Assembly: GCA_035652855.1 (NCBI GenBank)
Contig: DASRCZ010000008.1
Span: 14,911 to 78,910, forward strand
DNA: 64,000 bases
DNA from: Candidatus Acidiferrum sp.
Lineage (GTDB): Bacteria; Acidobacteriota; Terriglobia; Acidiferrales; UBA7541
Direction of reading: 5' to 3'
Positions 81 through 42,033 of the stretch are shown one piece after another. The notes beneath the pieces are model-generated. The model was not told the origin of the DNA. It ran no database searches and saw only the letters and a program-made list of their open reading frames with translations. A program made the translations under genes and the position numbers. Position 1 is the stretch's first letter. Every line of letters starts with the position of its first letter.

Positions 81-566
81 TTGCGTTTCGCCTTTGCCAC
101 AAGCATAGCGTTGGTTTGCGCCTTCCGGTTATCGGCGCAAAATGCCGTATTATCGATGTCGCCTACGCCCAGCGTAGCCGGGGCCAAAGTGACGATGCCA
201 ATCTCCTTGACCGTTCCGCCGGGAGCGAAAATCGCGGCGCTGCAGTGGTCGCTGATTTATCCGGAAAGCGACATCGTATCCGTGAATGTGGCCGCAGCGG
301 CGGCGGTCCAGATGGTTCACAAAACAGTGGTGTGCTCCGGGAAACGGGGAAGCGCCACGTGTGTGCTATTTGGAATGAATCAGAGTGTCATGCCGGATGG
401 CGTGCTCGTCCAAGTGACATTCGAACTTTCAGAGCAGCCGCATACGTTGATTAACATCGAGTTGAACAACATCGTTGCGGCGACGGCTGTCGGCGGACCG
501 GTTGCGGTCTCAACAGGTTCTGAGCCGAAAATTGTGGTGGCGCCGCGTGCGCCCAGGACCATGTGA
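81..566 (+). CDS. Secreted stand-alone cohesin-like domain protein
   Basis: Signal peptide (..RLSA/Q), then a beta-rich domain GAKVTMPISL..AALQWSLIY..KTVVC..CVLFGMNQSVMPDGVLVQVTF that is clearly homologous to the N-terminal domain of 40510..42033. Confidence 0.7.
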   Translation: MRFAFATSIALVCAFRLSAQNAVLSMSPTPSVAGAKVTMPISLTVPPGAKIAALQWSLIYPESDIVSVNVAAAAAVQMVHKTVVCSGKRGSATCVLFGMNQSVMPDGVLVQVTFELSEQPHTLINIELNNIVAATAVGGPVAVSTGSEPKIVVAPRAPRTM

Positions 567-666
567 CCCGGACTGGATTCTAAATATCAGCGACAGTGGA
601 AACTTGTTCGGACGGCCGCTGGGCGGGTTGCCGCTCAAAGTTCTGTGTTTTGTGTGTATTCGGGTA

Positions 667-682
667 TGGCGCCGAAACTGCT
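667..682 (+). promoter_or_regulatory. Candidate sigma54 promoter
   Basis: TGGCGCCGAAACTGCT, GG-N10-GC, just upstream of ATG 700. Confidence 0.5.
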
Positions 683-699
683 CCAATATTCAACTCCTG

Positions 700-1068
700 A
701 TGTCTCGGCCGGTGCGCAACCTCATATATTCATATTGGATGATGTTGTGTATTGCGCCAGCCGCGTCTGGCGATGTTATACGGTACGCCTCGACCGACTT
801 TTTGGCGAAGGGTCATTGTTGCAGTATGGCAGCGGATCGGCCGTCGATGCGCGTCGATGACTTTCTAGCGGTGACCGACGCGGCCGCCGCTGCCCTGACG
901 GATGAAATGCCGGATGTGCGTTTGCATGGACCCTCATGGCTTTTCTTTTTCATGGCGATTATGGCCTTCATAGCCGCCAAAACCCTGCTGTTCTATCGTC
1001 CGGTGCATCGCGCCACCGTGGCATACGCCCGCCTGTATTGGGCTCTTTTCAACCCATTAGAATTCTAG
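700..1068 (+). CDS. Small hypothetical exported/membrane-anchored protein (start re-called from 475 to 700)
   Basis: Signal-like N-terminus (..LCIAPAASG/DVIRY) and a C-terminal hydrophobic helix WLFFFMAIMAFIAA followed by basic residues; a sigma54-like element lies directly upstream. Confidence 0.45.
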   Translation: MSRPVRNLIYSYWMMLCIAPAASGDVIRYASTDFLAKGHCCSMAADRPSMRVDDFLAVTDAAAAALTDEMPDVRLHGPSWLFFFMAIMAFIAAKTLLFYRPVHRATVAYARLYWALFNPLEF

Positions 1069-1079
1069 CTATAGCTAGA
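1064..1079. repeat. Perfect 16-bp palindrome
   Basis: TCTAGCTATAGCTAGA, overlapping the TAG stop at 1066-1068. Confidence 0.8.
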
Positions 1080-1360
1080 GCTCCGTTTCCATCCATCCCT
1101 TACACGTTCGACACACCCTCTTCAAGATCAGCACGGATCTTGAACACCCAAAGGCCGGCTCACGTCATTCATACGGCGGGAGTGGATCTGGTCAGCCCCG
1201 GCAGTGCTGGAGGGCGCGGAATAATATTCCGCTATCGGATAGAGCAGCGGCCGCTCAGTTCGCACTGGCCATCTGTCGAGCCCCTGCTCGTCGGCGATCT
1301 GCGACGCTTTGAACCCTGGCTTACAGGGGAAAGGAGTTGCCGGATATAACCGTGGCGGCG

Positions 1361-1376
1361 TGGCTCATACTATGCA
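1361..1376 (+). promoter_or_regulatory. Candidate sigma54 promoter
   Basis: TGGCTCATACTATGCA, GG-N10-GC. Confidence 0.55.
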
Positions 1377-1385
1377 CAGGAGCGA

Positions 1386-1514
1386 ATGTTTTTACAGCAA
1401 CGCAGTCAGGAAGTGAGTTGCGCGTGCTGCGTGCTTATCCAGTACATTCAACCCCTTGCGCCCGGAGAGAAGCCAGACAGGCCGTACGGCTCACCGGCGA
1501 GCGCGGCCATCTGA
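1386..1514 (+). CDS. Possible 42-aa small protein (not in ORF track)
   Basis: Hand translation MFLQQRSQEVSCACCVLIQYIQPLAPGEKPDRPYGSPASAAI*; its ATG lies at the predicted start site of the 1361 promoter. Confidence 0.25.
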   Translation: MFLQQRSQEVSCACCVLIQYIQPLAPGEKPDRPYGSPASAAI

Positions 1515-1808
1515 ACTGAATACGCTATACAACAAATCAGGAATTTGCTCCGCTATTTGGGTCGTCGTTACGTCGCCGCGGAGTGGCATACGCTTCAGAC
1601 GCACGGACAAGCGCTGACCTGCTATTTGGCCCCTTATTTGCCCAGTAGTTTATCTCCAACTTGGCAGGATAACGGTGCAGTGAAAGGCCAGCGGGGAAAT
1701 GCCTATCTTCCAACGGTTCGCAGACAGCCTGGTTCTTATTACCTTTTCTTTGGTGTACCGCGCGGCAGTGACGCTGCTGAAGTACCGGAGAGCTGGCTAG
1801 CGTAGCAC

Positions 1809-2711
1809 ATGCTCAATGCATTTACCGTCGATGTAGAAGAATATTTCCACCCGACTGAACTTCAAGCTGATGCTCCGACCAGACGCTGGCGAACATTTCC
1901 CTCCCGGCTCGAAGATCAGATTCGCCGCATCCTGGATTTGCTTCATGCACACAACGTATCCGCAACATTTTTTATCCTGGGCTGGATTGCAAACCGCCAG
2001 CCTGGCATTGTTCGATTGATCGCCAGTTACGGGCACGAGATCGGATGCCACAGCAATACTCACCGGTTGGTCTATACGCTCTCACCGGCTGAATTTCGCG
2101 AAGACACGAATTGCGCAGTGGCGGCAATCGAGGATGCCTGCGGAATCAGCCCCACTTGCTACAGAGCCCCCAGTTACTCGATTACGGACAAATGTCTTTG
2201 GGCTTTCGATATTTTAGCTGAGTGCAATTTTTCTCACGATTCGAGCGTTTATCCCATCTGCCATGATCGATATGGCATTCCCGGCTTCAGTCGCCACGCG
2301 ACCATCGTGCATACGCCGTCCGGTCCGATTCAGGAAATTCCTCCCGCCACCGTTCAGCTCAGCACTCATAATATAGCCCCGATTGGAGGCGGCGCATATT
2401 TTCGCCTTTTGCCGTACAGATATACGGCCGCCGGGATTCGCCGCGTCAATGAGCAAGAAGGTAAGCCCGTGTGCATGTATGTGCATCCGTGGGAGATTGA
2501 TCCGAAGCAGCCGAGGATCGCAAGCGGTTTTCTTTCGCGCTTGCGGACCTACGCCGGTCTGGGTTCTGTCGAACGCAAACTGAATCGCTTGCTCTCCGAC
2601 TTCCGGTTTCGTTCTATCGGAGAGATCTATCCCGCAATAGCCGATGGCGGTTCACATCATGAAACGTCGTCAAACTGTGGTCATAGTGTGGCGATCGGAT
2701 CAGCCGGCTGA
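1809..2711 (+). CDS. Polysaccharide deacetylase, PEP-CTERM/XrtA-system type (CE4 + DUF3473)
   Basis: NAFTVDVEEYFH, ATFFILGW, HEIGCHSNTH, YRAPSYSI, GGGAYFRLLPY, YVHPWEIDP. Confidence 0.92.
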   Translation: MLNAFTVDVEEYFHPTELQADAPTRRWRTFPSRLEDQIRRILDLLHAHNVSATFFILGWIANRQPGIVRLIASYGHEIGCHSNTHRLVYTLSPAEFREDTNCAVAAIEDACGISPTCYRAPSYSITDKCLWAFDILAECNFSHDSSVYPICHDRYGIPGFSRHATIVHTPSGPIQEIPPATVQLSTHNIAPIGGGAYFRLLPYRYTAAGIRRVNEQEGKPVCMYVHPWEIDPKQPRIASGFLSRLRTYAGLGSVERKLNRLLSDFRFRSIGEIYPAIADGGSHHETSSNCGHSVAIGSAG

Positions 2712-2753
2712 AATGAGCCGCGCTCTATTCTCTGCCTCATAGCATCGTAGTAA

Positions 2754-2769
2754 TGGTAATGCACTTGCC
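2754..2769 (+). promoter_or_regulatory. Candidate sigma54 promoter for cusBA
   Basis: TGGTAATGCACTTGCC, GG-N10-GC, ~58 nt before ATG 2827. Confidence 0.55.
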
Positions 2770-2826
2770 GTAAGTCGTTTGCCGCATTCCAGCCGCCTCG
2801 CTAGCGAATGTCGGAGCTGAATCGAC

Positions 2827-3891: not shown

Positions 3892-3913
3892 GTGCTGACC
3901 TGAGCTCGTCCTG

Positions 3914-6900
3914 ATGCTTGCCTCCATTGTTCGCTGGTCGGCTACGCACCGTTTCATCGTCATTGCAAGCTGGTGTCTCATTGCGGCGGTTGGAGTCTGG
4001 ACACTGCCCCGGCAGCGGGTCGACGCTCTCCCCGACGTTTCGGATACCCAAGTCATCGTGTATGCGAACTGGGCTCAGCCGGCTGAGCTGGTGGAAGCGC
4101 AGGTTACGTATCCGCTTACGATGGCTCTCCTGGGCGCCCTGCAAGTGAAGACGGTTCGCGGGTACACGGAATCCGGGTATGCCCTGATATATGTGATTTT
4201 TGACGACGGCGCGGACTTTTTCCGGGCCCGACAAAAGGTATCAGAGGCGTTGTCGAGAACCGGTTCATTACTGCCGGCAGACGCGCGTGTGGAAATAGGG
4301 CCCGAGGCGACCAGCGTCGGTTGGGTCTTCCAATATGCGCTCATCGATTCTGCTGGAAGGCGGTCGCTTGCGGATCTCAGGGCGCTCCAGGACTTCCAGT
4401 TGCAACCCGCGCTCAAAGCGACGCCTGGCGTCGCGGAAGTCGCCAGCGTCGGTGGCTTTGAAAGGGAATACCAGGTTACCGTTGATCCCACCTTTCTGGA
4501 AGACAACGACATTTCTCTTAAGGCTGTTGTCGAAGCCGTCCGCAAATCCAATGCTAATGCCGGCGCGCGGGTAATCGAGTTTTCAGACCGGCGATACACG
4601 GTGCGCGGCCTTGGGCTGGCGCATAGTATTGAAGATCTGGAGCGGATTGTCGTTCATCCGGATCATCCCTACAAAGTGGAAATGGGATTAGCGCCTGCGC
4701 CTGTGTTGCTTCGTGACATTGCGCACGTGGAAGCCGTTCCGCAGACGCGCTGGGGTATAGCCGATCTCGACGGCGCCGGAGAAGTCGTGGGCGGGATTGT
4801 GGTCATGCGCGCTGGTGAGAACGCGTCAGAAACCGTCCGCCGTGTGAAAGAACGGCTCCACGCATTCGAACGGTCCCTACCGGCCGGAGTGCGTATTGTA
4901 ACGACGTACGATCGCTCGGACCTGATCAAACGGTCGCTCGCAACGTTTCGTAATGAGTTGCTGCTGGCCGCATGCGTGGTTGCGCTCGTCATTATCATTT
5001 CATTGCAACATTTTCCATCCGCGATTGCGGCCGTGGCGATTATCCCGGCAACGCTGCTCATTGCGATGGGACCGATGTACTGGCTCGGCGTGAATCTGAA
5101 TATTATGTCGCTGGCCGCAATGGTTCTCTCGACCGGCGTGCTGGTGGATGGAGCCATTATCGAAGTGGAAAATTCGCACCGGCGGCTGAGTATGGCTGGC
5201 GTTGCAGGCGACGCGCGCCCTGTTCTGATTGAAGCCATGCAGGAGGTAGTTCCTGCCGTATTCTTGTCGTTGCTCGCAATCGCGGTGACGTTCCTGCCCG
5301 TATTTGCGCTCACGGGTCAGGAGGGGCGCTTGTTCCGGCCCATGGCAGCCGCGAAAACGATCGTGATGGCCGCAGCCGCGGCTCTGTCGCTGACGTTTGC
5401 CCCCGCCTTGCGCAGCGTCTTCAGCCGCTTGAACCCTATTGTATTTCGGCCGCGATGGCTCGCTTCCATAGCCAACTCCATGCTGGTCGGCGCGTACCGG
5501 CGGGAAGGGCAATCGCATCTATGGCGTACGCTGTACGCCATATATGAGCGAGTATTACGTCGTGTTCTCCTGTATCCCAAGACAACGATTGCAATCGCGA
5601 TTGTGCTGATGGCCGGTACGGCTCCACTGTACTTCCGGCTTGGCCGCGAATGGGCGCCGTCATTAAACGAAGAAACTCTCCTCTACATGCCGACTACGCT
5701 GCCCGGCATCCCCGTCAGTGAGGCCGCGCAGCTGCTCCATAGACAGGATGCCGTGCTGCGAGGCTTCCCAGAGGTGGCGAGCGTTTTTGGCAAGGCGGGT
5801 CGGGCGGCGACCTCGACAGATCCGGCGCCCCTCAACATGATCGAGACCACCGTCGTGTTAAAACCGCGCGAGCAGTGGCGGGAACGGCATCGCTGGTATT
5901 CCGGCTGGTCGCCGGAATGGTTGAAGGACTTGCTGTTCCGGCGCTTCGCCAGCGACCGGATCACGTATGACGAACTGCTCGCCGAAATGAATCGCGCGAC
6001 CGCGTTGCCCGGCCTGGTGAACTCCTGGACGATGCCGGTGCGCGGGCGCGCCGAGATGCTCACGACAGGCGCGCGGACGCCCTTGGCGGTGAAGGTTCTC
6101 GGACCAGATGCGCGCGCGGCGGAACGGATCGCCCGGCAGGTGGAAGCACGGCTGAAACCAGTTGCTGGAACGCGTTCGGTGTTTGCAGAACGTGCGCAGG
6201 AAGGATATTACCTCGATATTGACGTTGATCGCGACAAGCTGGCAGCGTATGGACTGCAAATGACGGACGTCCAGGATGTGATCCACTGCGCAATTGGCGG
6301 CGCGGAGGCGACGCGTCTCTTCGATGGCCGGGCGCAATATCCGGTAACCGTCCGATATCCGAAGAAATTTCGGGACAGCGTCGCAGAAATCGAGCGCATT
6401 ACGATTCTCAACAGCAGCGGAGAGCATGTTCCGCTAGGCGCAATTGCGCATATCCGCCCAACGCGCGGGCCCGGGATGCTGCGCACCGAAGGCGCTATGT
6501 TTGCGTCGTACGTATACATAGATACGGATTCTGATGACATCGGGACGTATGTTTCAAAAGCGCAGGCGGTCATGAACACGATCGCCACGCCTCCCGGATG
6601 CTGGCTCGAATGGGCGGGCGAGTTCGAAAACATGCTGCGCGCGAAGGCGCAGCTACGAATCGTGGCGCCGGCGACGCTTGCGCTGTTGATAGCGGTGCTG
6701 TATCTGAACACGAAATCGTTTGTAAGGACCGGTGTTGTGCTGTTGGCGGTCCCGTTTTCGCTTGTGGGCGCGCTGTGGATGATGTATGCGCTCGGCTATC
6801 ATGTTTCCATCGCCGCTTGGGTTGGAATGATCGCGTTAATGGGGCTGGATGCAGAAACGGGCGTATTCATGTTGCTGTTCATCGACCTCGCATACAGCGC

Positions 6901-7207
6901 CGCACGCCGCAACAACGCCGTAAAAACGTCTGCCGAGCTGAAAGACGCGATTATCGACGGAGCGGCAAAGAGGATGCGGCCGAAACTGATGACCGTAACA
7001 GCCGCTGTCGTCGGACTGTTGCCAACTCTGGTTTCGACCGGCACGGGATCTGAAATTGCGAAACGAATTGTCGCCCCCATGGTGGGGGGCTTGCTAGCCT
7101 CATTTGCGCTTGAGCTTCTCGTCTATCCTGCCGTTTACTACTTGTGGAAGCAGCCTCGCCCCGTCAGTGAGCCTAAAAGCGCGCTTGCGGCAAAGCGTCA
7201 CTACTGA
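3914..7207 (+). CDS. cusA: CusA/SilA-type Cu(I)/Ag(I) HME-RND transporter
   Basis: DALPDVSDTQVI, VTYPLT, GPEATSVGWVFQY; three-Met site motifs LLYMPTTLPG, DPAPLNMIET and RAEMLTTG; proton-relay motifs VDGAII, DAETG and RPKLMT. Confidence 0.95.
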   Translation: MLASIVRWSATHRFIVIASWCLIAAVGVWTLPRQRVDALPDVSDTQVIVYANWAQPAELVEAQVTYPLTMALLGALQVKTVRGYTESGYALIYVIFDDGADFFRARQKVSEALSRTGSLLPADARVEIGPEATSVGWVFQYALIDSAGRRSLADLRALQDFQLQPALKATPGVAEVASVGGFEREYQVTVDPTFLEDNDISLKAVVEAVRKSNANAGARVIEFSDRRYTVRGLGLAHSIEDLERIVVHPDHPYKVEMGLAPAPVLLRDIAHVEAVPQTRWGIADLDGAGEVVGGIVVMRAGENASETVRRVKERLHAFERSLPAGVRIVTTYDRSDLIKRSLATFRNELLLAACVVALVIIISLQHFPSAIAAVAIIPATLLIAMGPMYWLGVNLNIMSLAAMVLSTGVLVDGAIIEVENSHRRLSMAGVAGDARPVLIEAMQEVVPAVFLSLLAIAVTFLPVFALTGQEGRLFRPMAAAKTIVMAAAAALSLTFAPALRSVFSRLNPIVFRPRWLASIANSMLVGAYRREGQSHLWRTLYAIYERVLRRVLLYPKTTIAIAIVLMAGTAPLYFRLGREWAPSLNEETLLYMPTTLPGIPVSEAAQLLHRQDAVLRGFPEVASVFGKAGRAATSTDPAPLNMIETTVVLKPREQWRERHRWYSGWSPEWLKDLLFRRFASDRITYDELLAEMNRATALPGLVNSWTMPVRGRAEMLTTGARTPLAVKVLGPDARAAERIARQVEARLKPVAGTRSVFAERAQEGYYLDIDVDRDKLAAYGLQMTDVQDVIHCAIGGAEATRLFDGRAQYPVTVRYPKKFRDSVAEIERITILNSSGEHVPLGAIAHIRPTRGPGMLRTEGAMFASYVYIDTDSDDIGTYVSKAQAVMNTIATPPGCWLEWAGEFENMLRAKAQLRIVAPATLALLIAVLYLNTKSFVRTGVVLLAVPFSLVGALWMMYALGYHVSIAAWVGMIALMGLDAETGVFMLLFIDLAYSAARRNNAVKTSAELKDAIIDGAAKRMRPKLMTVTAAVVGLLPTLVSTGTGSEIAKRIVAPMVGGLLASFALELLVYPAVYYLWKQPRPVSEPKSALAAKRHY

Positions 7208-10200
7208 ATCTGCACGAAGGGAGCGACCGAGGGCACGCCATTGCTGTTGACGAGGAACAGCATATAGTAGCCCGGAGGCGCAAGGTTCCCGTTCGCTGGG
7301 GCGGATATCGTGAGCCCGCCCGCAGTTTGTTGAAATGCTAAAGGCACGAACCGAGCATTCTCATCGAAGAAGTGCGTCACCGCTCCGGTCCGGATCAATA
7401 CCGCGCTGGCAATGCTTGCAGCATCAGGCGTGCCGACGAAAAATGTGGAACCGTATTGGATTTGCGCCGGCGCCTGGGTAATCGCTGGCCGCGCGCCCTT
7501 GAACAGGTAGGGCGGCGAGAAGAACTCTGCATTCTTCTCGTCTGGAACCTGGCCGAAATCGGAGCCCATGCCGGACACCAGCACGCGGCCATCTGGCAGC
7601 AACACTGCCGTTGAGTGGTATTCGCGCGGAGTGTGCATCGACGCCATCGTGGTCCAGGTCTGCGTCTGAGGCGACCACAATTCCGCCGCATATACTGCAT
7701 TTGCGATGTTCCCGCCGTTTTTATCTGTTTCGCCGCCGGTCGCCAGAACTGTTCCGTCCGGCAACGTCGTAAGGTTCAGAAAGCTTCGCGGATAAACCAT
7801 CGAAGGGGTCTGCTGCCATTTCGGCGAGGGCTGCGTCATATCGAGCACATACGTGGTGTTTGTCGATGCGCCCACGTCCTGACTGTCAGCCGCGCTGCCG
7901 GCTTTCATGATTTTCCCCGGCACATACATGGCGGAACTTCCGCCATCAACAATGTTCGGGTCGACAACTGACCAGGACTGCGTATTTAAGTCAAGAATAT
8001 CCGTCACCACGGCATATTCGGATCCACCAACGTGAATCACCCGGCCATCCGGCAGCAAATACATGAAGGGGTACGTTTCGAACGGATTGTAGGCGTTGGG
8101 CAGTTGGGTCCATTTATTCGTGACCGGATCATAAATCTCAGGAACTCCGGCGTTGGTATGACTTGCGGTCTGCCATCCGGCCGTCACCAGAACACGGCCG
8201 TCTGAAAGCGTTGTCGCCGTCGGATACCAGCGTTTGTACGCCATGTTCGGAACCGCGGTCCATTTGTTCGTCGATGGATCGAAGATTTCCGCATTTGCGA
8301 TTCCGATATTGCTGCCGCTTCCGCCGTAGCCGCCAGCGACGAGAACACGCCCGTCGGCGAGCAGAGCGTGGCCGGAGCAAAAGAGATCTGCGGACGTCGG
8401 AATATTCTGAAAGGTGTTATTGATGTAATCCCAGACCGTCGGCGTCATGCCGTCCTGATACAGCAGGACTTTGTTGTTGTTCAGCAGAATTAGGTTTACC
8501 GCAACGGTGGGAATGTTTACCACAGACGACCAGCTGCCCATCACGGCTGGATTTCCTGAGCGGTCCACGGTGATGGAAACAGCGGCGGACATCGCCGTAT
8601 TTCCGGCAGTGTCCCGCGCCCGGGCCGTTATCGTGTGCTGCCCATTGGCAACAGTGCTGGTATCCCAAACCATTGAGTACGGAGGGGTGGTTACTTCCGA
8701 CCCGAGCTGAGCGCCGTCGAGGAAAAACTGTACGCCGGCGACGGATGCGTTATCGGAGGCTACGGCCCAAAGTGTAGATGAGGTGGTCACAATGCCGCCC
8801 TGGGCCGGCGCGATGACGGACACAGTCGGCGGCGTGGCGTCAGGGACTCCGGAAGCGGCCGGCAGGACTTCGCAGAGACTGAGATTCCACCGGTCCGAAG
8901 TCGGCGAGGTATCGTTGATGCTGACCGTTGCTCCGGCTGCCGGAGTTGGACTATTCTGCATCTGCACCCAATATGTGTCGCCGGCCGGCGTCAAATATTG
9001 GTGAACAATACTCTGGCCGGTTCCTGCCGTCCGACCGACCGCTCTGTCGTAGTCGTTGCCGACGCCAAAGACCCAGGAATTGTTGCGAGTCGTCACGAGC
9101 GAGGCGCCCGGCGCCCCTGACGCGGCGTTCTTGCTTGCGATGGCGCCGATCGCTCCAGAACCGTTTGCCCCTGACGTATCCGCGCCAGTGAAACTGACCA
9201 CCGTGATCGAGGAGATAACGCTTTGCGACAACGAAGCGGTTACCGAAATATTGCTCAGCGGCCCGGCCGCAAATGCGCGCCAGATTTCGGATGTGCCGGC
9301 CTGCCCATTTGACCGAACTACGAGATTCCAGGTCAGTCCGCCGCCAGAAACGCTAGTGACTGTCGTGTTCGCGCCAGCGAGATAGTCAGTTGCAATGAAG
9401 GCCAACAGTAGCTCGTTGCCCACAGTGGTCGAGAATGCCGGACTGGTAATACTGGGCGCAGCCGCGGTCCCATCCGTTGAAACCTTAATGTCAATGCCGA
9501 GCGAACCCACGGATGCTGTCTGAGCTGTGAAATTCACGCCCGACACGTTTGCGTTGGAAACTGTTGCTGATTGAGACGCTGGCATCATCGTATAGCCCGC
9601 TTTCGAGGGCGTTACTGTATAGGCGCCATTTGCGAGACCAGTAAAACTGTAATTGCCTGCAGCATCCGCCGTAGTGGTCGCTTTTGCGGCGCCATTCAGC
9701 GTTACCGTGGCGGATGCTCCGGCTGAAGCCGGGCTGATGGTTCCGGAAATGCTCCAGGTGGGTATCGCCGTGGCAGTAAAATTGATCGCAGTCGCGTTGG
9801 CGCCATTAATCGTAAGGGACTGGCTGACTGGGTCGAAGGTATAGCCATTCTTGGCGGGCGTTACGGTATAGTTTCCATCCGGCGCGCCGCTAAAGCTATA
9901 ATTTCCGGATGCATCGGCTGTAGTCGTTGCGCTCGCGGCGCCGGTTAGAGTGATCGTTGCGCCGCTCCCCGCAGCGCTGGGAGTAATTGAGCCCGAAATG
10001 CTCCACGTCTGGGTTGCGACCGCCGGCGGTAAAATCTCGCAGACGGCCAGATTCCACCGATCAGACGTCGGTGCGGCGTCATTGATCGTGACGGTCGCCC
10101 CGCTTATCGGCGTCGGCGCATTCTGCATCTGAACCCAGTAGGTGTCTCCCGCTGGCGTGAGATATTGGTGAACCAGCGATTGCCCGGCCGGGACAGTCCG

Positions 10201-10737
10201 GGCGATAGCATTATCGTAGTCATTTCCTACGCCGAAGACCCAGGAATTCGCCCGGGTCGTGATAACAGACGCGCTCGGAGCTCCGGACCCGCCGTTTCTA
10301 CTGGCTGTCGCCCCGATTGCTCCTGAACCGTTGACGCCCGAGGTATCGACGCCGGTGAACGTCATTACGGTCATCGAGGAAAGCACCCGTTGCGAGAGCG
10401 TGGCCGTCACAGAGACATTCGTCAGCGGTGATGGCGCAAACGCGCGCCAGATCTCCGATGTGCCCCGCTGTCCATTGGATCGGACCACCAGCGTCCAAAC
10501 AAGGCCGGCGCCGGCGACGTTCCGAACAGTAGTATTTGTTCCCGACAAATAGTCTGTCTCGATGAAGGCCAACAGCAGCTCATTGCCGCTTACGGTCGTA
10601 AAAGTGGGGCTTACAATTGTCGTACTCGATGAACTGCGATCTTGGGAGATGTTGACGTCAACCGCGATCGCGGCGTGAGCGCACGCCGCCACAGCCAGAA
10701 GCGCAATGAAAACCGTACAGCGCCAATCCTTCACCAA
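7201..10737 (-). CDS. Secreted multidomain copper-radical oxidase (galactose/glyoxal oxidase-like, AA5): duplicated ~210-aa domain, two Ig-like spacers, Ig-like domain, Kelch propeller, DUF1929-type C-terminus
   Basis: Signal peptide; GGAGG RBS; DLFCSGH (Cys), RWYPT (Tyr), REYHST (Tyr-His), VTHFFD (His), APPGYYMLF. Confidence 0.9.
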   Translation of the reverse strand: MVKDWRCTVFIALLAVAACAHAAIAVDVNISQDRSSSSTTIVSPTFTTVSGNELLLAFIETDYLSGTNTTVRNVAGAGLVWTLVVRSNGQRGTSEIWRAFAPSPLTNVSVTATLSQRVLSSMTVMTFTGVDTSGVNGSGAIGATASRNGGSGAPSASVITTRANSWVFGVGNDYDNAIARTVPAGQSLVHQYLTPAGDTYWVQMQNAPTPISGATVTINDAAPTSDRWNLAVCEILPPAVATQTWSISGSITPSAAGSGATITLTGAASATTTADASGNYSFSGAPDGNYTVTPAKNGYTFDPVSQSLTINGANATAINFTATAIPTWSISGTISPASAGASATVTLNGAAKATTTADAAGNYSFTGLANGAYTVTPSKAGYTMMPASQSATVSNANVSGVNFTAQTASVGSLGIDIKVSTDGTAAAPSITSPAFSTTVGNELLLAFIATDYLAGANTTVTSVSGGGLTWNLVVRSNGQAGTSEIWRAFAAGPLSNISVTASLSQSVISSITVVSFTGADTSGANGSGAIGAIASKNAASGAPGASLVTTRNNSWVFGVGNDYDRAVGRTAGTGQSIVHQYLTPAGDTYWVQMQNSPTPAAGATVSINDTSPTSDRWNLSLCEVLPAASGVPDATPPTVSVIAPAQGGIVTTSSTLWAVASDNASVAGVQFFLDGAQLGSEVTTPPYSMVWDTSTVANGQHTITARARDTAGNTAMSAAVSITVDRSGNPAVMGSWSSVVNIPTVAVNLILLNNNKVLLYQDGMTPTVWDYINNTFQNIPTSADLFCSGHALLADGRVLVAGGYGGSGSNIGIANAEIFDPSTNKWTAVPNMAYKRWYPTATTLSDGRVLVTAGWQTASHTNAGVPEIYDPVTNKWTQLPNAYNPFETYPFMYLLPDGRVIHVGGSEYAVVTDILDLNTQSWSVVDPNIVDGGSSAMYVPGKIMKAGSAADSQDVGASTNTTYVLDMTQPSPKWQQTPSMVYPRSFLNLTTLPDGTVLATGGETDKNGGNIANAVYAAELWSPQTQTWTTMASMHTPREYHSTAVLLPDGRVLVSGMGSDFGQVPDEKNAEFFSPPYLFKGARPAITQAPAQIQYGSTFFVGTPDAASIASAVLIRTGAVTHFFDENARFVPLAFQQTAGGLTISAPANGNLAPPGYYMLFLVNSNGVPSVAPFVQIQ
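8860..9495 (-). repeat. Copy 2 of the intragenic ~210-aa domain duplication
   Basis: GNELLLAFI..RSNGQAGTSEIWRAFA..NSWVFGVGNDYD..HQYLTPAGDTYWVQMQN..PTSDRWNL. Confidence 0.9.
10025..10665 (-). repeat. Copy 1 of the intragenic ~210-aa domain duplication
   Basis: GNELLLAFI..RSNGQRGTSEIWRAFA..NSWVFGVGNDYD..HQYLTPAGDTYWVQMQN..PTSDRWNL. Confidence 0.9.
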
Positions 10738-10784
10738 ATCGTGCCTCCTCCGATGAACACACGAATCCTGTTCCTGCCGACCGT

Positions 10785-15784: not shown

Positions 15785-15827
15785 TAGTCCTTAGTACTAT
15801 CTTAGTACGCCTAGTCTAGACGCCTAG
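15785..15827. promoter_or_regulatory. TAGTAC/GTACTA repeat cluster (candidate operator)
   Basis: CTTAGTAC twice at 11-bp spacing, palindrome TAGTACTA at 15792-15799, CGCCTAG twice; directly upstream of the -35. Confidence 0.5.
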
Positions 15828-24653: not shown

Positions 24654-24787
24654 GCGCACACACGCCCGCCGGCGCTCTGCGCTGTACGCAAGCAGCTGCC
24701 GCGGGCGTACTACGACGACGTGAACTCTGCATTTGCATTCAGCCTCACATCCACCTCATCCTCTGGGATCCTTCACGCTATCGATGG

Positions 24788-24812
24788 TGGTTATGTCGAC
24801 TTAGCATAACCA
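24788..24812. promoter_or_regulatory. Inverted repeat upstream of the PEP-CTERM gene (candidate TF site)
   Basis: TGGTTATG-N9-CATAACCA. Confidence 0.4.
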
Positions 24813-24905
24813 ATTTCGCGAAGGAAGATACATCTACACGGCTGTAACTGCCTAGTACGCGTGATCTATTCTGGCGGCCCGATGATTAGTGGCAATGTCT
24901 TGACT

Positions 24906-25831: not shown

Positions 25832-26141
25832 CAATAGACCACCCGACCAGTTCGTTTTGCCGTTTGCGTCACCCAACGCCGAACTACCAAGAAATCAGTG
25901 GCTTGTAAGGATCCGACGCAGACCTACTCTTCTGGCAGAGAAAATGGGCCCTTGTCTGGTACTATATTGCTAGATCGTTTGGTACTAGAGTACTATATCA
26001 ATTCTAGCGCTGACGGACGATCTCTGTGGTCGGGTTCCTCAGCGCCAAACGGTCCCGATCCCGGTCAAGACTGGGTATAACTGGTGAGACCGGTGAACAA
26101 TTTTATCCGAGGTCAGCAGAAGCCTCCTGGAAAGGAATGCA

Positions 26142-27944
26142 ATGCGGGTTTTTCTGTCGCTTTCCGTAGTGCTGTTGTCCGCTGCGGGCTGGTCATCTTT
26201 AGCCGTCGCACAAACGCCGCCGCCGGTCATCTTTTTCACCGATCTACAATCCGGTCCGAATAGCGGAGGGGACGCTCAGGGCGGCTATTCCGGCGCTTAC
26301 GTCACCATCTATGGAAATTTTTTCGGTGCGACGCAGGGGACGTCTACTGTGACGCTGAATGGGTCGTCATGTCTGCGCGTCGTGTCGTGGGGGACATCCT
26401 GGCTGTGGTATCAGCGAATAGTTGTGCAACTAGGCTCCTCCTGCTCCAGTGGAAACCTCGTTGTTTCAACTTCCGCAGGGCAAAGCAACGGCGTTCCATT
26501 TACGGTTCGGGCCGGCAATATCTACTGTATATCTCCAGCCGGATCGGATAGTAACAGCGGAAAGTTTCCATCCTCGTGCTGGTCGACCCTGGCGCATGCG
26601 CTCTCTGTCATGTCGGCCGGAGATACGGTCTATTTGCAGAACGGCGTGGTCAATGCCAATGTGAGCAACTATTCAGCCGTGGCTAATGTACAAGGCAGGC
26701 CGGGCGGCACGGCGGCCAGTCCGATCGCTATCGTTGCATACCCCGGAGCGACCGCTACCATTGGCAGCAACAGCGTCACTTATGCGATCCGTGTTCCACA
26801 AACCGGGGTGAATCCTGCCTATTACGTCATCGCCGGGCTGACATTGCGCGGTGGAGAGGGCTTGGAGATCTTTGGCGCCGATAACTGGCGACTCGTAGCC
26901 AATGATTTAAGCTGTCCGGCGGGAAGCGGCTACGGCTGTACGCATGTGGATCAATCGTCCAACATTTATTACTACGGCAATTACACTCACAATATCACCG
27001 GAAAAGTAAAACTCTACCACGGCGTTTATTTCACTACCAATACTAACCATGTCTGGGTGGGATGGAATTTGATCGACAATGACCCCAGTCATACGGGCTC
27101 AGCCGGATGCCGTGGTTTACAATTCTATTCCACCGGCGGCAACGACATGTATGATGTTCACGTTCACGACAACATCATCCGAAACACCGACTGTGATGGG
27201 ATCGCGATGACGACGATGAACCCGGACCAGGGAACCGTCGAGGTCTATAACAATGTTATCTACAATGCTGGCATGGCCGATCCAGGAGATTTCGCCCACT
27301 ACACCTGTCTGCAGGTCGCAAGTGGCAGTGTTGTCACCATGCCGGCTCAAGTTTACAATAACACTTTGTACAACTGCGGCTCTCGGGGGGGCGGATCGGT
27401 CGTTGGGGCTTTTTCTCTGACCATTCCAACCAAGCTAACCAATAATGTCGTATACAGCGCCAGCTCCGCGGAGCCATATCTCGCATCCGATAACGGCCCA
27501 TGCTCCCTATTGAGCGGCAGCAACAACTTATGGTTTGGGGCCGGCCCGCCGCCGTGCTCTTCCAATCTCAGCAGCAGTCTGAATGTCGATCCCAAATTTG
27601 TCGCCATAGGCTCGAATTTTCAACTACAAAGCGGCAGCCCAGCCATCGACGGCGGCGCCAGCGTTTCCGCAGCCTTTTCGATCGATGGGGTACGGAGGCC
27701 TCAAGGTTCCAGCGTCGACCGTGGCGCATATGAATTTTTTGTAGCGACGACTACCGCGTCCCCATGCGACCTGAACGGCGACGGTTCGATTGACGCATCC
27801 GATGTCTCACTCGCGGTGAACCAGGCATTGGGGAGCACAACCTGCTCGTCTGGCGACTTGGACCGAGACGGCAATTGCACCGTTGTGGACGTTCAGCGAG
27901 TCGTCAACAGCACGCTTGGGCAAGGGTGCCGGGTTGGACCGTAG
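26142..27944 (+). CDS. Secreted IPT/TIG + right-handed beta-helix (pectin-lyase-like) protein with choice-of-anchor-Q-like motif and C-terminal dockerin
   Basis: AGDTVYL; Asn-ladder repeats (VHDNII, VYNNVIYN, VYNNTLYN); FQLQSGSPAID..RPQG..DRGAYEF; CDLNGDGSIDASD..GDLDRDGNCTVVD. Confidence 0.85.
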   Translation: MRVFLSLSVVLLSAAGWSSLAVAQTPPPVIFFTDLQSGPNSGGDAQGGYSGAYVTIYGNFFGATQGTSTVTLNGSSCLRVVSWGTSWLWYQRIVVQLGSSCSSGNLVVSTSAGQSNGVPFTVRAGNIYCISPAGSDSNSGKFPSSCWSTLAHALSVMSAGDTVYLQNGVVNANVSNYSAVANVQGRPGGTAASPIAIVAYPGATATIGSNSVTYAIRVPQTGVNPAYYVIAGLTLRGGEGLEIFGADNWRLVANDLSCPAGSGYGCTHVDQSSNIYYYGNYTHNITGKVKLYHGVYFTTNTNHVWVGWNLIDNDPSHTGSAGCRGLQFYSTGGNDMYDVHVHDNIIRNTDCDGIAMTTMNPDQGTVEVYNNVIYNAGMADPGDFAHYTCLQVASGSVVTMPAQVYNNTLYNCGSRGGGSVVGAFSLTIPTKLTNNVVYSASSAEPYLASDNGPCSLLSGSNNLWFGAGPPPCSSNLSSSLNVDPKFVAIGSNFQLQSGSPAIDGGASVSAAFSIDGVRRPQGSSVDRGAYEFFVATTTASPCDLNGDGSIDASDVSLAVNQALGSTTCSSGDLDRDGNCTVVDVQRVVNSTLGQGCRVGP

Positions 27945-29307: not shown

Positions 29308-31029
29308 TTAAATGAGGGCGGCTGCTTCAACGTTTTTTGGAGCGATCACCGCGCTCGTATATCCACCAGTTTCAGCGGCCGTAGCCAGAGTGCATCCATC
29401 GATGGCCTCCGCGCCGGCGCATTGGCTGTACGTATGAAGGCCCACCAGTCCCTCCCAGGTCGTCGGATCAAGCGTCAACAAAGCCTGCTCGCAATACTCC
29501 TCCGGGTTCAAGGTAGTAATTTCCTGAAAATTCAAACGATAGCCGTAACGCACGCTGCCATCCTGGCTCGGCCGCAGCAGCCTGCCGTCCTGTCGAAAAA
29601 TGGGACCCGCGCCTCGGACGGTCCGGACATCGGCGCATATCGGGTTGGCCGGGTGACTCTTCCATTCGCCGGTCAGTTCACGGGAAAAAAACAAGAACAG
29701 CATCGTTCCCTCGGCGCGGCTCTCCTTGAGCGTGGAAAAAAACCACCAGAATTCCCCGTCATGCCAAATCGCCGTGTCCACCGCCCATAGGTTTGAGGCC
29801 AAAACCTTCTCGAGCTTCCACTCATGAGGAAAGTGAACAGCCCGATATAGCTCTACCGTCCGGTTGCCACCCGTCTCGGGCACCATGAAGATCTCGCCGC
29901 CGTATTCGAATACCTGGGGAAAGGACAAATGATAATTGCGTCGCAAAGCAACGCGGGCCTCCGATAGAGCGCCATCCGGGAGAACTGCCGCGCAATCGAT
30001 AACAGCCCGCCGCGCGGCGTACTCATAGTGCTCGTAAAACAGCCAGATCTGTCCTTCGCGCCGTATGAGAAATGGATCCGCATAGAGGTGACCCGGGGGC
30101 GAAGAAATCCACCGGAAGCCGCTCGTATCAGGAACGCCACTCCTCAGCAATCGCTGCTCTCCAACGCGGATGGCCATACGCCAGTGTTCAGCGCGCGCAC
30201 CAGTTACAAGCCGGCGGGCGACCTTGCCGGCAATCTTCGGAGCGAGCCAGGCGATCATTTCTGTATTCGACGGATTCCGGCCATGGGCAGCCGGTGCGTT
30301 CCGCGATGGCGGCTCGGAGGACCTCACGGCGCCGCACGAATGAAGCTCGAATAGCTTTTGAATTACAAACGATGTGCAGGCCCATCCGGGTCGAGCCCGG
30401 CCCGCGCGCCACGAGATATTTCCCGCCGGAGCGCCGCCGAAAACGCCCTCACATAACACACGGTCGTTCTTCCCCGCATCGCCCAGAACACACAGCGCAA
30501 CCCGGGTGAACGGACGCGCGTACCGGACCTGCCAAAACAACGCAAGAGCGCCATCCCGCTCGGGGCCGTCGGCGAATCGATACGCCCATACCCCGTGACG
30601 AGGGATCTGCACAATGCGTCCCCGTATATCGCGGCACGAAACAAGCAATAGGACATCTAGGTCGGCGGCGCGAATCGCCTCGAGCGCGTCTGACCCGATT
30701 TCACCGTCTGCTGAAACCTCGGCATCTATGCGCCGTGCGGCGCCAAACGCGTCGGCCGCCTCAGCCGGTGCGAATGGATCCGCGGCGGCGTTCGCACGCA
30801 TTCGGTCCCACCGGTCATACAGACGAAACAGCACGCCTGCGCGCCGGGACGCCGCCGGCCCCTGCATCCGCACCACGACTTCGAGCCGCGCAAAATTGCA
30901 CTTCGCAATATCCTCGAAAATCGACAAGAACAGCTGCGGGATAGACCCCGCATCGGCAAGGACGCCAACCCTTAACGCTCGGCTATTGCTCGATGAAATC
31001 CGATATAAGGAGGAGAGCACAGTGATCAT
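29308..31029 (-). CDS. Degenerate formyltransferase-like domain fused to a GINT1-N/GH43-like five-bladed beta-propeller
   Basis: DLDVLL..PRHGVW in the N-terminal part; YADPFL, HLSFPQVF, MVPET, RGAG, RPSQD, GLHTY. Confidence 0.7.
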   Translation of the reverse strand: MITVLSSLYRISSSNSRALRVGVLADAGSIPQLFLSIFEDIAKCNFARLEVVVRMQGPAASRRAGVLFRLYDRWDRMRANAAADPFAPAEAADAFGAARRIDAEVSADGEIGSDALEAIRAADLDVLLLVSCRDIRGRIVQIPRHGVWAYRFADGPERDGALALFWQVRYARPFTRVALCVLGDAGKNDRVLCEGVFGGAPAGNISWRAGRARPGWACTSFVIQKLFELHSCGAVRSSEPPSRNAPAAHGRNPSNTEMIAWLAPKIAGKVARRLVTGARAEHWRMAIRVGEQRLLRSGVPDTSGFRWISSPPGHLYADPFLIRREGQIWLFYEHYEYAARRAVIDCAAVLPDGALSEARVALRRNYHLSFPQVFEYGGEIFMVPETGGNRTVELYRAVHFPHEWKLEKVLASNLWAVDTAIWHDGEFWWFFSTLKESRAEGTMLFLFFSRELTGEWKSHPANPICADVRTVRGAGPIFRQDGRLLRPSQDGSVRYGYRLNFQEITTLNPEEYCEQALLTLDPTTWEGLVGLHTYSQCAGAEAIDGCTLATAAETGGYTSAVIAPKNVEAAALI

Positions 31030-34116: not shown

Positions 34117-34129
34117 TGCGGGTCTCACT

Positions 34130-34145
34130 TGCAACCCTCTGGCCA
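34130..34145 (-). promoter_or_regulatory. Candidate sigma54 promoter
   Basis: Minus strand TGGCCAGAGGGTTGCA; it overlaps the ORF-track start, which implies a later start codon. Confidence 0.6.
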
Positions 34146-34343
34146 AAGCGCTGCTCCACCGCCTCTTTTACACCGCCTGGCGACTCAGTGCGCGTTCCGA
34201 ATTTAGGTATAGCGCCAGAATTCGGGATTCATTGCAACAAAATTGTATGACCGCAGTTCGAACCCTGTCGCATGCTCAAAACCGGCCCTTTGCGCGCCGC
34301 CGAGCGAGCCATGACGAACCAGTTCTGGGGATCCATACTCGAT

Positions 34344-34359
34344 TGGCATAGCTCTTGCA
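34344..34359 (+). promoter_or_regulatory. Near-consensus sigma54 promoter for the 34493-40381 operon
   Basis: TGGCATAGCTCTTGCA. Confidence 0.75.
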
Positions 34360-34492
34360 ACACGCCTTTGTACTCAATATTCGAGGCAGAGTGCCAGCCG
34401 AAGCACAGTCCGCTAGATCCGTTGTACCCGTTCATGACGCACCAGACTGGCATGAAGTCGCATGTTGAGTCTCTCGACGATAGTCGGAACCG

Positions 34493-35365: not shown

Positions 35366-35393
35366 AGCCTGAAGTCCAGCCTGAGGTCGCCCG

Positions 35394-37304: not shown

Positions 37305-37312
37305 GACTTCGC

Positions 37313-39587: not shown

Positions 39588-39595
39588 GGAAATCC

Positions 39596-40381
39596 ATGCG
39601 AATCGAATTTTTGACTGTGGCAGATCCCATTTATATCCTGCCGTTGTTTGATGAGTTCTTCAGACATTATGGCGACCAATGGGATGTCGTCCGGATCTCC
39701 TGCTGCCGCACAATGGGCAGCCGCCCGAGGCTGAAGCTGGCCCGTGAGTTGATCGAGTTATACGGCCCCGTCGGATTTGCTCGGCTTTCGGCGCGGCTCG
39801 CGTCCGCACGCGCCTTGGGATTGATCCCGCTGGGACGAGGCGCGCGCCGGTACCACTCGCTTTCGCAGCTTGCCAAAGCATACGGAATCGAGTGCCAAGC
39901 GATCGGCAATCCGAACGCTCCCGAATTCATCGCTGAAGTCGAGGGCCGCCGCTGCGATCTCATCGTGTCAGTCGCATGCCCGTATATCCTGAAGCCGCGG
40001 CTGCTAAATTTGCCGCGTCTCGGCTGCATCAACATCCACCATGCGCCGCTGCCGCGATACAAGGGCATGATGCCAACGTTTTGGCAGATGTATCACGGTG
40101 AAACCACGGTCGGCCTAACCATCCATACGATGTCGGAAAAGATTGACGAAGGCGCAGCATTGCTTCAGGATGAACTGCCGATTCAGCCCGGCGAGACCCT
40201 CGACCATCTGATCCGCCGTTCTAAGCGCCACGCCGCGCACTGCCTGGCCAAGGTTCTGCGAGATATCTCTGGAAATTCCGTCCGTAAGAAGCCGCTCGAC
40301 CGCGAAGCCGGCAGCTACTTCACCTTCCCGACCTTCGCCCAAATCCGCGAGTTCCAGCGCCGTGGTCTTCGAGCCATCTGA
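39596..40381 (+). CDS. Sugar N-formyltransferase-like protein
   Basis: CINIHHAPLPRYKG, GLTIH, IDEG (Asn/His/Asp catalytic pattern). Confidence 0.85.
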   Translation: MRIEFLTVADPIYILPLFDEFFRHYGDQWDVVRISCCRTMGSRPRLKLARELIELYGPVGFARLSARLASARALGLIPLGRGARRYHSLSQLAKAYGIECQAIGNPNAPEFIAEVEGRRCDLIVSVACPYILKPRLLNLPRLGCINIHHAPLPRYKGMMPTFWQMYHGETTVGLTIHTMSEKIDEGAALLQDELPIQPGETLDHLIRRSKRHAAHCLAKVLRDISGNSVRKKPLDREAGSYFTFPTFAQIREFQRRGLRAI

Positions 40382-40467
40382 CGTCGGAACGCGCCCAAGT
40401 CACGCATGGCGACCCATGTGTCGCAGACAAATGACGGATGGAGTGGATGAACAGATGAACATCGGAA

Positions 40468-40499
40468 GCGGCGACAGGCGCGCTCCGGCCTGTCGCCGC
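40468..40499. terminator. 12-bp stem hairpin between convergent genes
   Basis: GCGGCGACAGGC-N8-GCCTGTCGCCGC. Confidence 0.6.
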
Positions 40500-40509
40500 A
40501 CGGCCGGCA

Positions 40510-42033
40510 TTACTGTCCTGGCGCGAAGACGACATCAACCCAATAGTTGCTGTTGTTCCATGTATTCCTCGGGAACACCGAAGATCCGTAGGCATATACT
40601 CCCGGAGAACTTCCGGAGACCGAAAGCGGGCTTGCATTCAAACTGCTCCACGCATAATTCTGGTCGTCCGAATAGTGACCGTTGGGCGCGGTGTACGAGA
40701 TGACATAGACTGTGTTGGCCGCGATCTTGACCGGTTTTGAGAAGTTCGCCTGCTGCCAGCCCGTGGCGGTTTCATTCTTGAACGTGACGGTGGCCAGAAG
40801 CGTGCCGCTGCTCGTCCAGAGATGTCCCACGTGCGTTCCCGTGTTGCTCGATCCTTTATAGAACCGGACGCCCGTAACCGAGCCGGCAACCGTAGACGAG
40901 AATTTCAACCCGAGCTCGACGGAACTCGCGTCCGGATCGGTTATTGTTCCCGGCGTGGCCGTCGCCGGCCAGAACGATACCGGAGAAGACGACGATCCGG
41001 CTGGATTGAGCGTCACGACAGCGGTCGCGTATTTGGTCGTATCCGCGACACTGGTCGCACGGACCGTGACCGTTTGCTGTTGAGATATAGAAGATGGGGC
41101 AGTGTACAGGCCTGTCGACGAGATCTTACCCGTAGAGGAGGATAGCGACCAGGTCACGGCAGTGTTGGAGGTCCCGCTGACGCTGGCCGTGAATTGCTGG
41201 GATCCGCCGGGCCCGAGCGTCACGCTCGAAGGCGATACCGAAACAGCAATGGATGCTCCGGGACTCACGTTGATCGTGGCGACCTTTGTTGTCGAATTCA
41301 ACGACGCCGAAACTTGAACTGATGTCGAGGCCGTAGCGGCGCTGATCTGCACAGTAAATTGAGCCGTAGTCGCCCCGCTCGCAACGGTAACAGATGTCGG
41401 CGCCGACACGGTCGCGGCGGATGAGCTCCATCCGACCGACACGGCAACGCCGCCGGACGGCGCAGGTCCGGAAAGCGACACCGTACATTGAGAGGAAGCG
41501 GGCGCTGTGACGGAAGCGGGACTGCACGCCAGGCTGTTCAGTGTAACCGTCGGCGCGTTGATCGTCACCGTTGCGGTAGACCCAGCAGCCGCCAGCGGGT
41601 CGCCGGCCGCCGAACTCGCGCTCGCGCTGGCCACTTGGACAGCGCTCGAGCTCGCCCCCGTGCTGCTCGACAAGGTCAGATTGGCGGTCGCAATCGTTCC
41701 GTCAGCAATCACGTTCGAGTTCATTCCAGTTACAAGGCAAACATATTGCCCTGATGCCGGCGAATTGCAAGAAATTGTTTTCCCCGCATTGGAAGTGGAT
41801 GGGCCAGGGATCACAGAAACATTACTGAAATCCGCCGGCGAAAACAAAAATGCCCACTGCACCCCAGCGGCCTGCGCCCCGTTGGAAACATACGCAACTG
41901 GCAAGCTCACAGTTGTGCCCTTAAGGCCTGAGCCAGACGAGAGCCTGAGAGTGGCCGTCTGCCCAAATGCGACGAACGTCCAAGCGAAAAGAGATATCGC
42001 GCATACAGCGCTCCGTAATACACTGATTTCCAC
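40510..42033 (-). CDS. Secreted cohesin-like + Ig-like + DUF4082 protein
   Basis: Signal peptide; GTTVSLPV..AGVQW..KTISC..CLVTGMNSNVIADG; VSVSPSSVTL..QQFTASVSGTSNTAVTWS; VELGLKF..GVRFYK..GWQQANF..NYWVDVVF. Confidence 0.85.
   Translation of the reverse strand: MEISVLRSAVCAISLFAWTFVAFGQTATLRLSSGSGLKGTTVSLPVAYVSNGAQAAGVQWAFLFSPADFSNVSVIPGPSTSNAGKTISCNSPASGQYVCLVTGMNSNVIADGTIATANLTLSSSTGASSSAVQVASASASSAAGDPLAAAGSTATVTINAPTVTLNSLACSPASVTAPASSQCTVSLSGPAPSGGVAVSVGWSSSAATVSAPTSVTVASGATTAQFTVQISAATASTSVQVSASLNSTTKVATINVSPGASIAVSVSPSSVTLGPGGSQQFTASVSGTSNTAVTWSLSSSTGKISSTGLYTAPSSISQQQTVTVRATSVADTTKYATAVVTLNPAGSSSSPVSFWPATATPGTITDPDASSVELGLKFSSTVAGSVTGVRFYKGSSNTGTHVGHLWTSSGTLLATVTFKNETATGWQQANFSKPVKIAANTVYVISYTAPNGHYSDDQNYAWSSLNASPLSVSGSSPGVYAYGSSVFPRNTWNNSNYWVDVVFAPGQ

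Follow-up and report, generated by a model that had tools for sequence, protein, structure and literature searches.

The described systems closest to the one reported here are the type I cohesin-dockerin pairs of cellulosomes, namely those of C. cellulolyticum CipC (2vn5/2vn6/1g1k) and C. thermocellum (1ohz), which gave the best profile and fold matches of the cohesins described below. Cohesin and dockerin modules are also widespread outside cellulosomes, and these non-cellulosomal modules were reportedly surveyed by Peer et al. in 2009. In the toxin complexes of Clostridium perfringens, both module types are found on large Gram-positive enzymes that act on host glycans, and the R. bromii amylosome provides another known non-cellulosomal pair (PMC4611034). 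In two papers that cite this survey, the function of cohesin and dockerin modules outside cellulosomes is given as unknown (PMC5244752; PMC10066038). Here we describe a genuine non-cellulosomal cohesin-dockerin set lying in an extracellular polysaccharide (EPS) biosynthesis island of the uncultured acidobacterium Candidatus Acidiferrum sp., where, in our judgement, a secreted beta-helix enzyme, named DocP, would probably be docked through its C-terminal dockerin on a carrier protein, CohB, while a second protein, CohA, would offer a free cohesin with the same binding face. The window, that is, the whole stretch of 64,000 nucleotides that was analysed (G000:C8:14911-78910), belongs to a metagenome-assembled genome (MAG) of 2.98 Mb in 292 contigs that is 72.6% complete, and all coordinates given without a contig refer to it.

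Both cohesin genes of the window encode proteins with signal peptides. CohA (81-566, plus strand, TTG start) is a protein of 161 aa made of a signal peptide, which is also present in a homologue of 84% identity, and one cohesin module, and the domain scan found neither a second domain nor an anchor beyond these two parts. CohB (40510-42033, minus strand, 507 aa) consists of a signal peptide, a cohesin module (41560-41961, residues 25-158, 168.8 bits with the family profile), two immunoglobulin (Ig)-like domains, and a DUF4082 domain (40537-40959, residues 359-499, PF13313 E 2.8e-52), and this architecture bears out the initial annotation, which had placed a cohesin N-terminal to Ig and DUF4082 domains. 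That annotation had also proposed that the two cohesin-like domains are mutually homologous and share a W/K/C/C/G/N/G motif, and this holds as well, given that residues 12-116 of CohA align with residues 10-121 of CohB at 30% identity (BLASTP E 7e-13) and that CohA residues W56, K81, C85, C94, G98, N100, and G107 are invariant in all 33 family members aligned. The genome contigs and metagenome contigs searched yielded no close relatives of CohA, and an alignment-based search of metagenomes gave five short and distant loci that were left unused.

The Pfam cohesin family PF00963, with a gathering score of 24.1 bits, is reached by the paralogue CohC (24.3 bits) and by the CohB orthologues of two other loci, L013 and L003 (35-38 bits), and 23 of the 33 aligned family members match it at E<=0.01; as single sequences, CohA scored 12.9 bits, below the cut-off, and the N-terminus of CohB gave no match. 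Among 1.84 billion representative proteins, the profile search retrieved 2780 family proteins at E<=1e-3, of which 1050 reached E<=1e-10, with the module nearly always directly after the signal peptide, either alone (~120-200 aa) or heading long multi-domain proteins. When the 33-sequence profile was compared with solved structures, the top six matches were all cohesins, led by the C. cellulolyticum cohesins 2vn5 (E 6.9e-9) and 1g1k (E 2.4e-8). The AlphaFold model of CohA (pLDDT 91.5) is a prediction and not a solved structure, and it has the nine-stranded jelly-roll of the cohesin type; a Foldseek search of the PDB gave nothing other than cohesins among the top ~40 matches (TM 0.7-0.8), and the best of them is 2xdh, a non-cellulosomal cohesin of Archaeoglobus fulgidus (E 5e-12). 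In this model, C85 and C94 are opposed across a beta-hairpin of strands 81-88 and 91-98, and therefore a disulfide between them is plausible. The contrary reading foreseen beforehand, in which these domains would fold as generic Ig or carbohydrate-binding module (CBM) sandwiches, is rejected, since the fold search of the CohA model gave cohesins only among its top matches. CohA and the N-terminus of CohB are genuine cohesins.

The dockerin belongs to DocP (26142-27944, plus strand), a secreted protein of 600 aa comprising a signal peptide, an IPT/TIG-like Ig domain (residues ~29-123), a right-handed parallel beta-helix (residues ~127-500), a choice_anch_Q segment (residues 492-532), and the C-terminal dockerin module (27768-27914, residues 543-591). 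PF00404 matches residues 543-589 (27768-27908) with 25.5 bits against a cut-off of 22.9, and with 27.4 bits in the genome scan. The module holds two 12-residue Ca-loop motifs, DLNGDGSIDASD and DLDRDGNCTVVD, both with Asp or Asn at positions 1, 3, 5, and 12 and each followed by a helix, at residues 552-562 and 581-591 of the AlphaFold model, respectively. Four cysteines (542, 568, 579, and 596) flank the dockerin and are conserved in the orthologous dockerins, as seen in an alignment with seven other acidobacterial dockerins. The C-terminus of DocP is, therefore, a genuine dockerin, as had been annotated from its duplicated Ca-loops.

The body of DocP was modelled with a pLDDT of 74, and its best Foldseek match is the PL9 pectate lyase 1ru4 (E 8.7e-8), followed by GH28 (2uve), 6kfn, 5olq, PL6 and alginate lyases, rhamnogalacturonan lyase, and phage tailspikes, with the matrix lyase RbmB of V. 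cholerae also among the matches. The dockerin carrier had been proposed to be a polysaccharide lyase or epimerase-like enzyme, and the lyase/hydrolase-type beta-helix agrees with this; no catalytic family of Pfam or NCBIfam was matched by DocP, so that the term "polysaccharide lyase or hydrolase" is meant at the level of the fold and the protein is filed in no CAZy family. Just ahead of the dockerin, the NCBIfam model choice_anch_Q scores 41 bits against a cut-off of 25, and we take this family to be one whose proteins usually carry surface-sorting tails.

Comparative evidence links DocP with CohB. Orthologues of DocP were collected at 13 loci, of which only L003 and L013 keep the dockerin and 10 lack it. 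In both L003 and L013, an orthologue of CohB lies immediately upstream of the dockerin-bearing DocP orthologue, in an EPS island of the same type that belongs to another acidobacterial lineage and is ordered as sigma-54 regulator, kinase, XrtA deacetylase, CohB, DocP, deacetylase/GT4 glycosyltransferase (GT), Wzy, and flippase, with the XrtA deacetylase orthologue of L013 directly upstream of the CohB orthologue. CohB is 48% identical to the L013 protein over residues 25-352 (cohesin and Ig) and 59% identical over DUF4082 (BLASTP), and the orthologue of these two loci is built of cohesin, Big_2, fn3, and two DUF4082 domains; the accompanying DocP orthologue shares 43% identity with DocP along the entire protein and likewise has a C-terminal dockerin, in which the four cysteines recur. 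None of the 10 dockerin-less DocP orthologues has a family cohesin within 10 kb, although four of them (L005, L008, L010, and L012) are encoded in acidobacterial EPS islands homologous to this one. The two dockerin-bearing loci, L003 and L013, are nearly the same yet deposited under different phyla, as a Rhodospirillales MAG and an Acidobacteriota MAG; probably one of the two bin assignments is wrong, or else the island moved recently.

The same association is found across the phylum. Of 400 other genomes sampled, the cohesin family is present in 14 and dockerins in 150, and both modules coincide in 11 of the 14 cohesin-positive genomes, against a dockerin in 139 of the 386 others (odds ratio 6.5, Fisher p 0.003, without phylogenetic correction, and since the sampled genomes are mutually related, these statistics overstate independence). 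In these 14 genomes there are 37 family cohesins, of which 20 have a PF00404 match no more than 5 kb away, as compared with 0.2 by chance, and such neighbours were seen in 11 of the 14. Only part of the candidates of each genome was scored, and thus the cohesin counts in the order and phylum samples are lower bounds; the dockerin counts of 6/151 in the order and 151/401 in the phylum each take in one unpublished genome (G073 and G301, respectively), of which the adjacency and pairing results are independent. The neighbourhoods are of several kinds: in G212 and G484, small proteins made of signal peptide, Fn3, and dockerin are followed by cohesin-Fn3 or cohesin-cadherin-like proteins; in G418, an amidohydrolase with a C-terminal dockerin is followed by a cohesin protein; and in G418:C35:9840-14823 and G509:C204:5976-9750, tandem genes carry a family cohesin and a dockerin 19-31 bp from each other in one open frame (962, 558, 875, and 668 aa), and proteins fused in this way could serve as adaptors or form head-to-tail chains.

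The set is an accessory one in this genus: the 35 congeners within the order sample yielded neither cohesin nor dockerin, and a DocP homologue was found in only 1 of 40 congeners, with 42% identity and no dockerin. We considered whether the contig had been mis-binned, as these absences from related genomes might suggest; a patchy accessory-island content accounts for the same data.

The complex of CohB residues 25-158 with DocP residues 536-600 and two Ca was predicted with a score of 0.86, against 0.02 for the best of three controls; 58 of 80 solved complexes and 2 of 110 mismatched pairs attained this mark. At least 98% of contacts recurred between runs, and the partner had a pLDDT of at least 89. 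Because cohesin-dockerin complexes have already been solved, this pass may reflect memory, and it speaks for likeness to solved complexes rather than for binding. The predicted dockerin-binding face of CohB (residues 56-59, 88-90, 92, 98-106, and 138-146) takes in the family-invariant C..C..G.N motif, that is, the Cys hairpin together with G-x-N, and contacts both dockerin helices. It is over this predicted interface that CohA and CohB are most alike, being identical at 11 of 26 positions, as compared with 19 of 108 elsewhere; the predicted face is about equally conserved in CohA and in the L013 orthologue, and a comparison of interface conservation favoured neither CohA nor CohB as partner of the dockerin. 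The interaction posited in the initial annotation is thus supported indirectly, through the adjacency of the orthologues, the covariation of dockerin and cohesin, the phylum-wide adjacency, and the controlled prediction of the CohB complex.

A further link is hinted at by the upstream regions. The hexamers TAGTAC/GTACTA occur 13 times in the window, against 5.2 expected, and none of 100 shuffles reached 13. Three of them (25959-25995) lie ~150 bp upstream of DocP and three (42060-42100) lie 27-67 bp upstream of the CohB start codon; other intergenic clusters, at 15792-15808 and 24707-24858, lie upstream of the kinase and of the PEP-CTERM gene. The presence of clusters ahead of both DocP and CohB hints at co-regulation, and the hexamer is possibly a shared operator.

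The genome-wide inventory of both modules supports the annotated non-cellulosomal status of the set. The assembly contains one dockerin, that of DocP, and four family cohesins, one per protein, with neither a multi-cohesin scaffoldin nor a dockerin-tagged CAZyme set found in its 72.6% of the genome, and DocP is its only dockerin cargo; this is not a cellulosome, a reading that we reject on these grounds. The third cohesin protein, CohC (467 aa, with TIG-type C-terminal domains, L001:4887-6290), has its gene 10 kb upstream of the window, with a GT4 gene on one side and the Wzz/GNVR and AAA/ParA-like genes of a polysaccharide chain-length system on the other, and of the fourth cohesin a gene fragment (L002:7912-8223) is present, cut short by the end of contig C10. 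Directly ahead of this fragment lies a gene for a subtilase (Peptidase_S8) with two C-terminal DUF4082 domains (L002:5421-7799), so that DUF4082 and the cohesin family recur together in this genome.

The setting, annotated as an EPS island, is confirmed to be of the XrtA/PEP-CTERM type. Two of its markers lie above their NCBIfam cut-offs, the XrtA-system polysaccharide deacetylase (1809-2711, plus strand; TIGR03006, 307.9 bits against 276.2) and the PEP-CTERM domain (17.6 bits against 16) of a protein adjoining DocP, and the island further encodes Poly_export, a Wzy-like ligase, GT2 and GT4 glycosyltransferases, a formyltransferase, an asparagine-synthase-type amidotransferase, and a sigma-54 activator with its kinase, with a Wzm/Wzt exporter further along. 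Three other matches remain below their cut-offs, namely the TIGR03108 amidotransferase (572.8 against 816.9), the TIGR03087 GT (238 against 317), and TIGR03097 (77 against 188). The amidotransferase is closest to Bryobacteraceae and Solibacter MAG proteins, at 63-68% identity, which places the organism in Acidobacteriota.

From module identity, predicted folds, genomic linkage, and gene inventory, we infer binding, partner cohesin, substrate, and location as follows. DocP would be an enzyme exported through Sec, with a right-handed beta-helix of the polysaccharide lyase/hydrolase fold class. Since acidobacterial EPS islands regularly include its orthologues, its most likely role is to trim or modify the polymer of its own island. 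In this lineage, DocP appears to have gained a Cys-stapled two-loop dockerin at its C-terminus along with the cohesin proteins. Most likely, this dockerin docks in a Ca-dependent manner on CohB, at the canonical face of its N-terminal cohesin. CohB, a non-catalytic carrier composed of a cohesin, two Ig domains, and DUF4082, is the candidate receptor that we favour, and through it the enzyme would be attached to the target of the Ig-DUF4082 part of CohB, presumably the polymer or the cell envelope. CohA, with its free single cohesin and the same conserved face, would probably accept the same dockerin and might act as a buffer, a shuttle, or a competitor, the last of which, like an adaptor, had been put forward in the initial annotation.

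Several observations weigh against this proposal. In the window itself, the pair is not adjacent, with DocP and CohB ~12.5 kb apart on opposite strands and CohA 25.6 kb from DocP, and the cohesin proteins of L003 and L013 are 88% identical, so that the adjacency of the orthologous pair counts as one independent observation besides the window. Three cohesin-positive genomes have no nearby dockerin, two of them having none at all. Four cohesins face one detected dockerin in an assembly that is 72.6% complete, which leaves most cohesins without a visible partner. The enzyme class of DocP comes from its fold alone, at TM ~0.4-0.6 and in a model with a pLDDT of 74. Domain scans found no recognisable anchor in CohA, CohB, or DocP, and on the ligand side of the supposed tether, the DUF4082 of CohB had no solved homologue by sequence search; the ESM Atlas gave only DUF4082 clusters and sub-threshold PHR/lectin-like leads, and two papers that mention DUF4082 give the domain no function. 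DUF4082 may be a glycan- or envelope-binding domain, and the tethering of the complex to the matrix of the cell itself, as proposed in the initial annotation, is a conjecture.

Among the alternatives, the one that best survives, although we consider it unlikely, is that the modules are real and have other partners, with the DocP dockerin bound to CohA, to CohC, or to the cohesin at the end of contig C10, and with the dockerin for CohB encoded in the unassembled 27% of the genome. The excess of four cohesins over one dockerin is in its favour, as is the predicted binding face, whose conservation in CohA is close to that in the L013 orthologue, and cohesin-dockerin families of cellulosomes are often promiscuous within a type; against this, only CohB has orthologues adjoining a dockerin-bearing DocP orthologue, and its complex prediction passes its controls. 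Decidedly less probable is a periplasmic assembly, in which the cohesin proteins would hold the beta-helix enzyme at the export machinery to act on the nascent polymer, as in AlgG/AlgL/AlgX, without any outside tether. CohA, CohB, and DocP have Sec-type signal peptides only and lack sorting signals of the outer-membrane or PEP-CTERM kind, the periplasm is where many beta-helix enzymes of EPS processing reside, as in the alginate pathway, and the island does encode Poly_export and Wzz/GNVR components; but the cohesin-dockerin systems known so far are located outside the cell or at its surface, DocP carries choice_anch_Q, presumably a companion of surface-sorting tails, and relatives join the cohesin family to long fn3 and cadherin-like repeat proteins typical of surface fibres. 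Lastly, the absence of any interaction, with the dockerin as a Ca-binding stabilising tail, the cohesin-fold domains as glycan-binding or spacer sandwiches, and their joint presence as a coincidence, could draw on the 38% of sampled phylum genomes with dockerins (151/401), on the several cohesin-positive genomes without one nearby, and on PMC5244752, which, citing Peer et al. 2009, reports the function of non-cellulosomal modules as unknown, but it is very improbable in view of an adjacency ~100-fold above chance (20/37 vs. 0.2), of the fused cohesin-dockerin open reading frames, of the covariation of the DocP dockerin with cohesin presence, and of the position of the conserved family motif on the predicted canonical binding face.

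Beyond the docking of DocP on CohB, a wider reading may tentatively be put forward, one that we hold to be possible and rather doubtful, namely that Acidobacteriota own a phylum-wide cohesin-dockerin system that builds and remodels the protein component of the extracellular polysaccharide matrix, of which DocP on a matrix-glycan-binding DUF4082 carrier would be the local version. Its hallmarks would be the invariant disulfide hairpin of the cohesin, the Cys-stapled dockerin, and genes that are usually adjacent or fused, in the latter case encoding proteins able to form head-to-tail chains.

The locus provides a concrete case of non-cellulosomal modules in an abundant and poorly studied soil phylum, and a compact one, with one enzyme, one dockerin, and few candidate cohesin receptors, all inside a polysaccharide-synthesis island, where the pairing is supported comparatively by adjacency, by fusion, and by the joint gain of dockerin and cohesin. 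If the proposal is true, the connector of the cellulosome would have been reused in Gram-negative bacteria to organise the processing of the biofilm matrix, DUF4082 would have a first functional handle, and new orthogonal cohesin-dockerin pairs would become available for protein engineering. Our literature search gave no publication on cohesin-dockerin pairs from Acidobacteria or from EPS loci, nor any description of this connector as the means of holding an enzyme on a carrier protein within an EPS island.

Other features of the window were noted in passing. Between CohA and the XrtA deacetylase (566-1809), ~1.2 kb hold no convincing open reading frame or family match. The gene at 7201-10737 (minus strand) encodes a secreted protein of 1178 aa with a Kelch propeller of the galactose-oxidase/glyoxal-oxidase type, a GO-like E-set, CarboxypepD_reg, and Big domains, and is convergent with an RND pump gene (3914-7207). 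Within the EPS island, the gene at 29308-31029 (minus strand, 573 aa) matches GINT1_N (E 5e-38), a eukaryote-named family for the N-terminal domain of glucosamine inositolphosphorylceramide transferase, and has no NCBIfam match.

Compared with the known systems, the set shares with the type I cellulosomal pairs the duplicated Ca-loop/helix dockerin and a predicted complex formed through the canonical cohesin face and both dockerin helices. Unlike cellulosomes, it has no multi-cohesin scaffoldin, no CBM3, and no dockerin-tagged set of plant-cell-wall enzymes, with a single dockerin in the assembly, and it lies in a Gram-negative acidobacterial host, at a locus that makes polysaccharide instead of degrading it; the invariant Cys-Cys hairpin of the cohesin and the four conserved cysteines of the dockerin also set it apart from the cellulosomal type I pairs. 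As with the top structural match, 2xdh of Archaeoglobus fulgidus, the organism has no cellulosome and its cohesin proteins carry a single cohesin each, whereas the EPS biosynthesis island, the glycan-active beta-helix cargo, and the gene linkage conserved across the phylum distinguish it from non-cellulosomal modules of the A. fulgidus type. The glycoside-hydrolase toxin complexes of C. perfringens (GH84C/NagJ, GH33; 2w1n, 2jh2, 2vo8), which are among the fold matches, similarly use non-cellulosomal cohesins to join secreted glycan-active enzymes, but here a non-catalytic CohB and a free CohA face one enzyme, which would act on a polymer of the cell itself.

Two further comparisons concern single components. 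CohA, as a single stand-alone cohesin, resembles ScaG/CohG of Ruminococcus flavefaciens (4n2o, 4wkz), also among the fold matches and once proposed as a shuttle, but ScaG is part of a full cellulosome, and its partners are X-dockerins. DocP has the right-handed beta-helix in common with RbmB of V. cholerae (9ozl/9ozd), AlgG, and the PL6/PL9 lyases, and its orthologues reside in EPS islands; unlike these enzymes, DocP matches no Pfam catalytic family, and we know of none among them that is positioned by a dockerin. In summary, the cohesin and dockerin modules of this EPS island most likely work, as far as the present analysis can tell, like the type I cellulosomal pairs and like the pairs of A. 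fulgidus, C. perfringens, and R. bromii.

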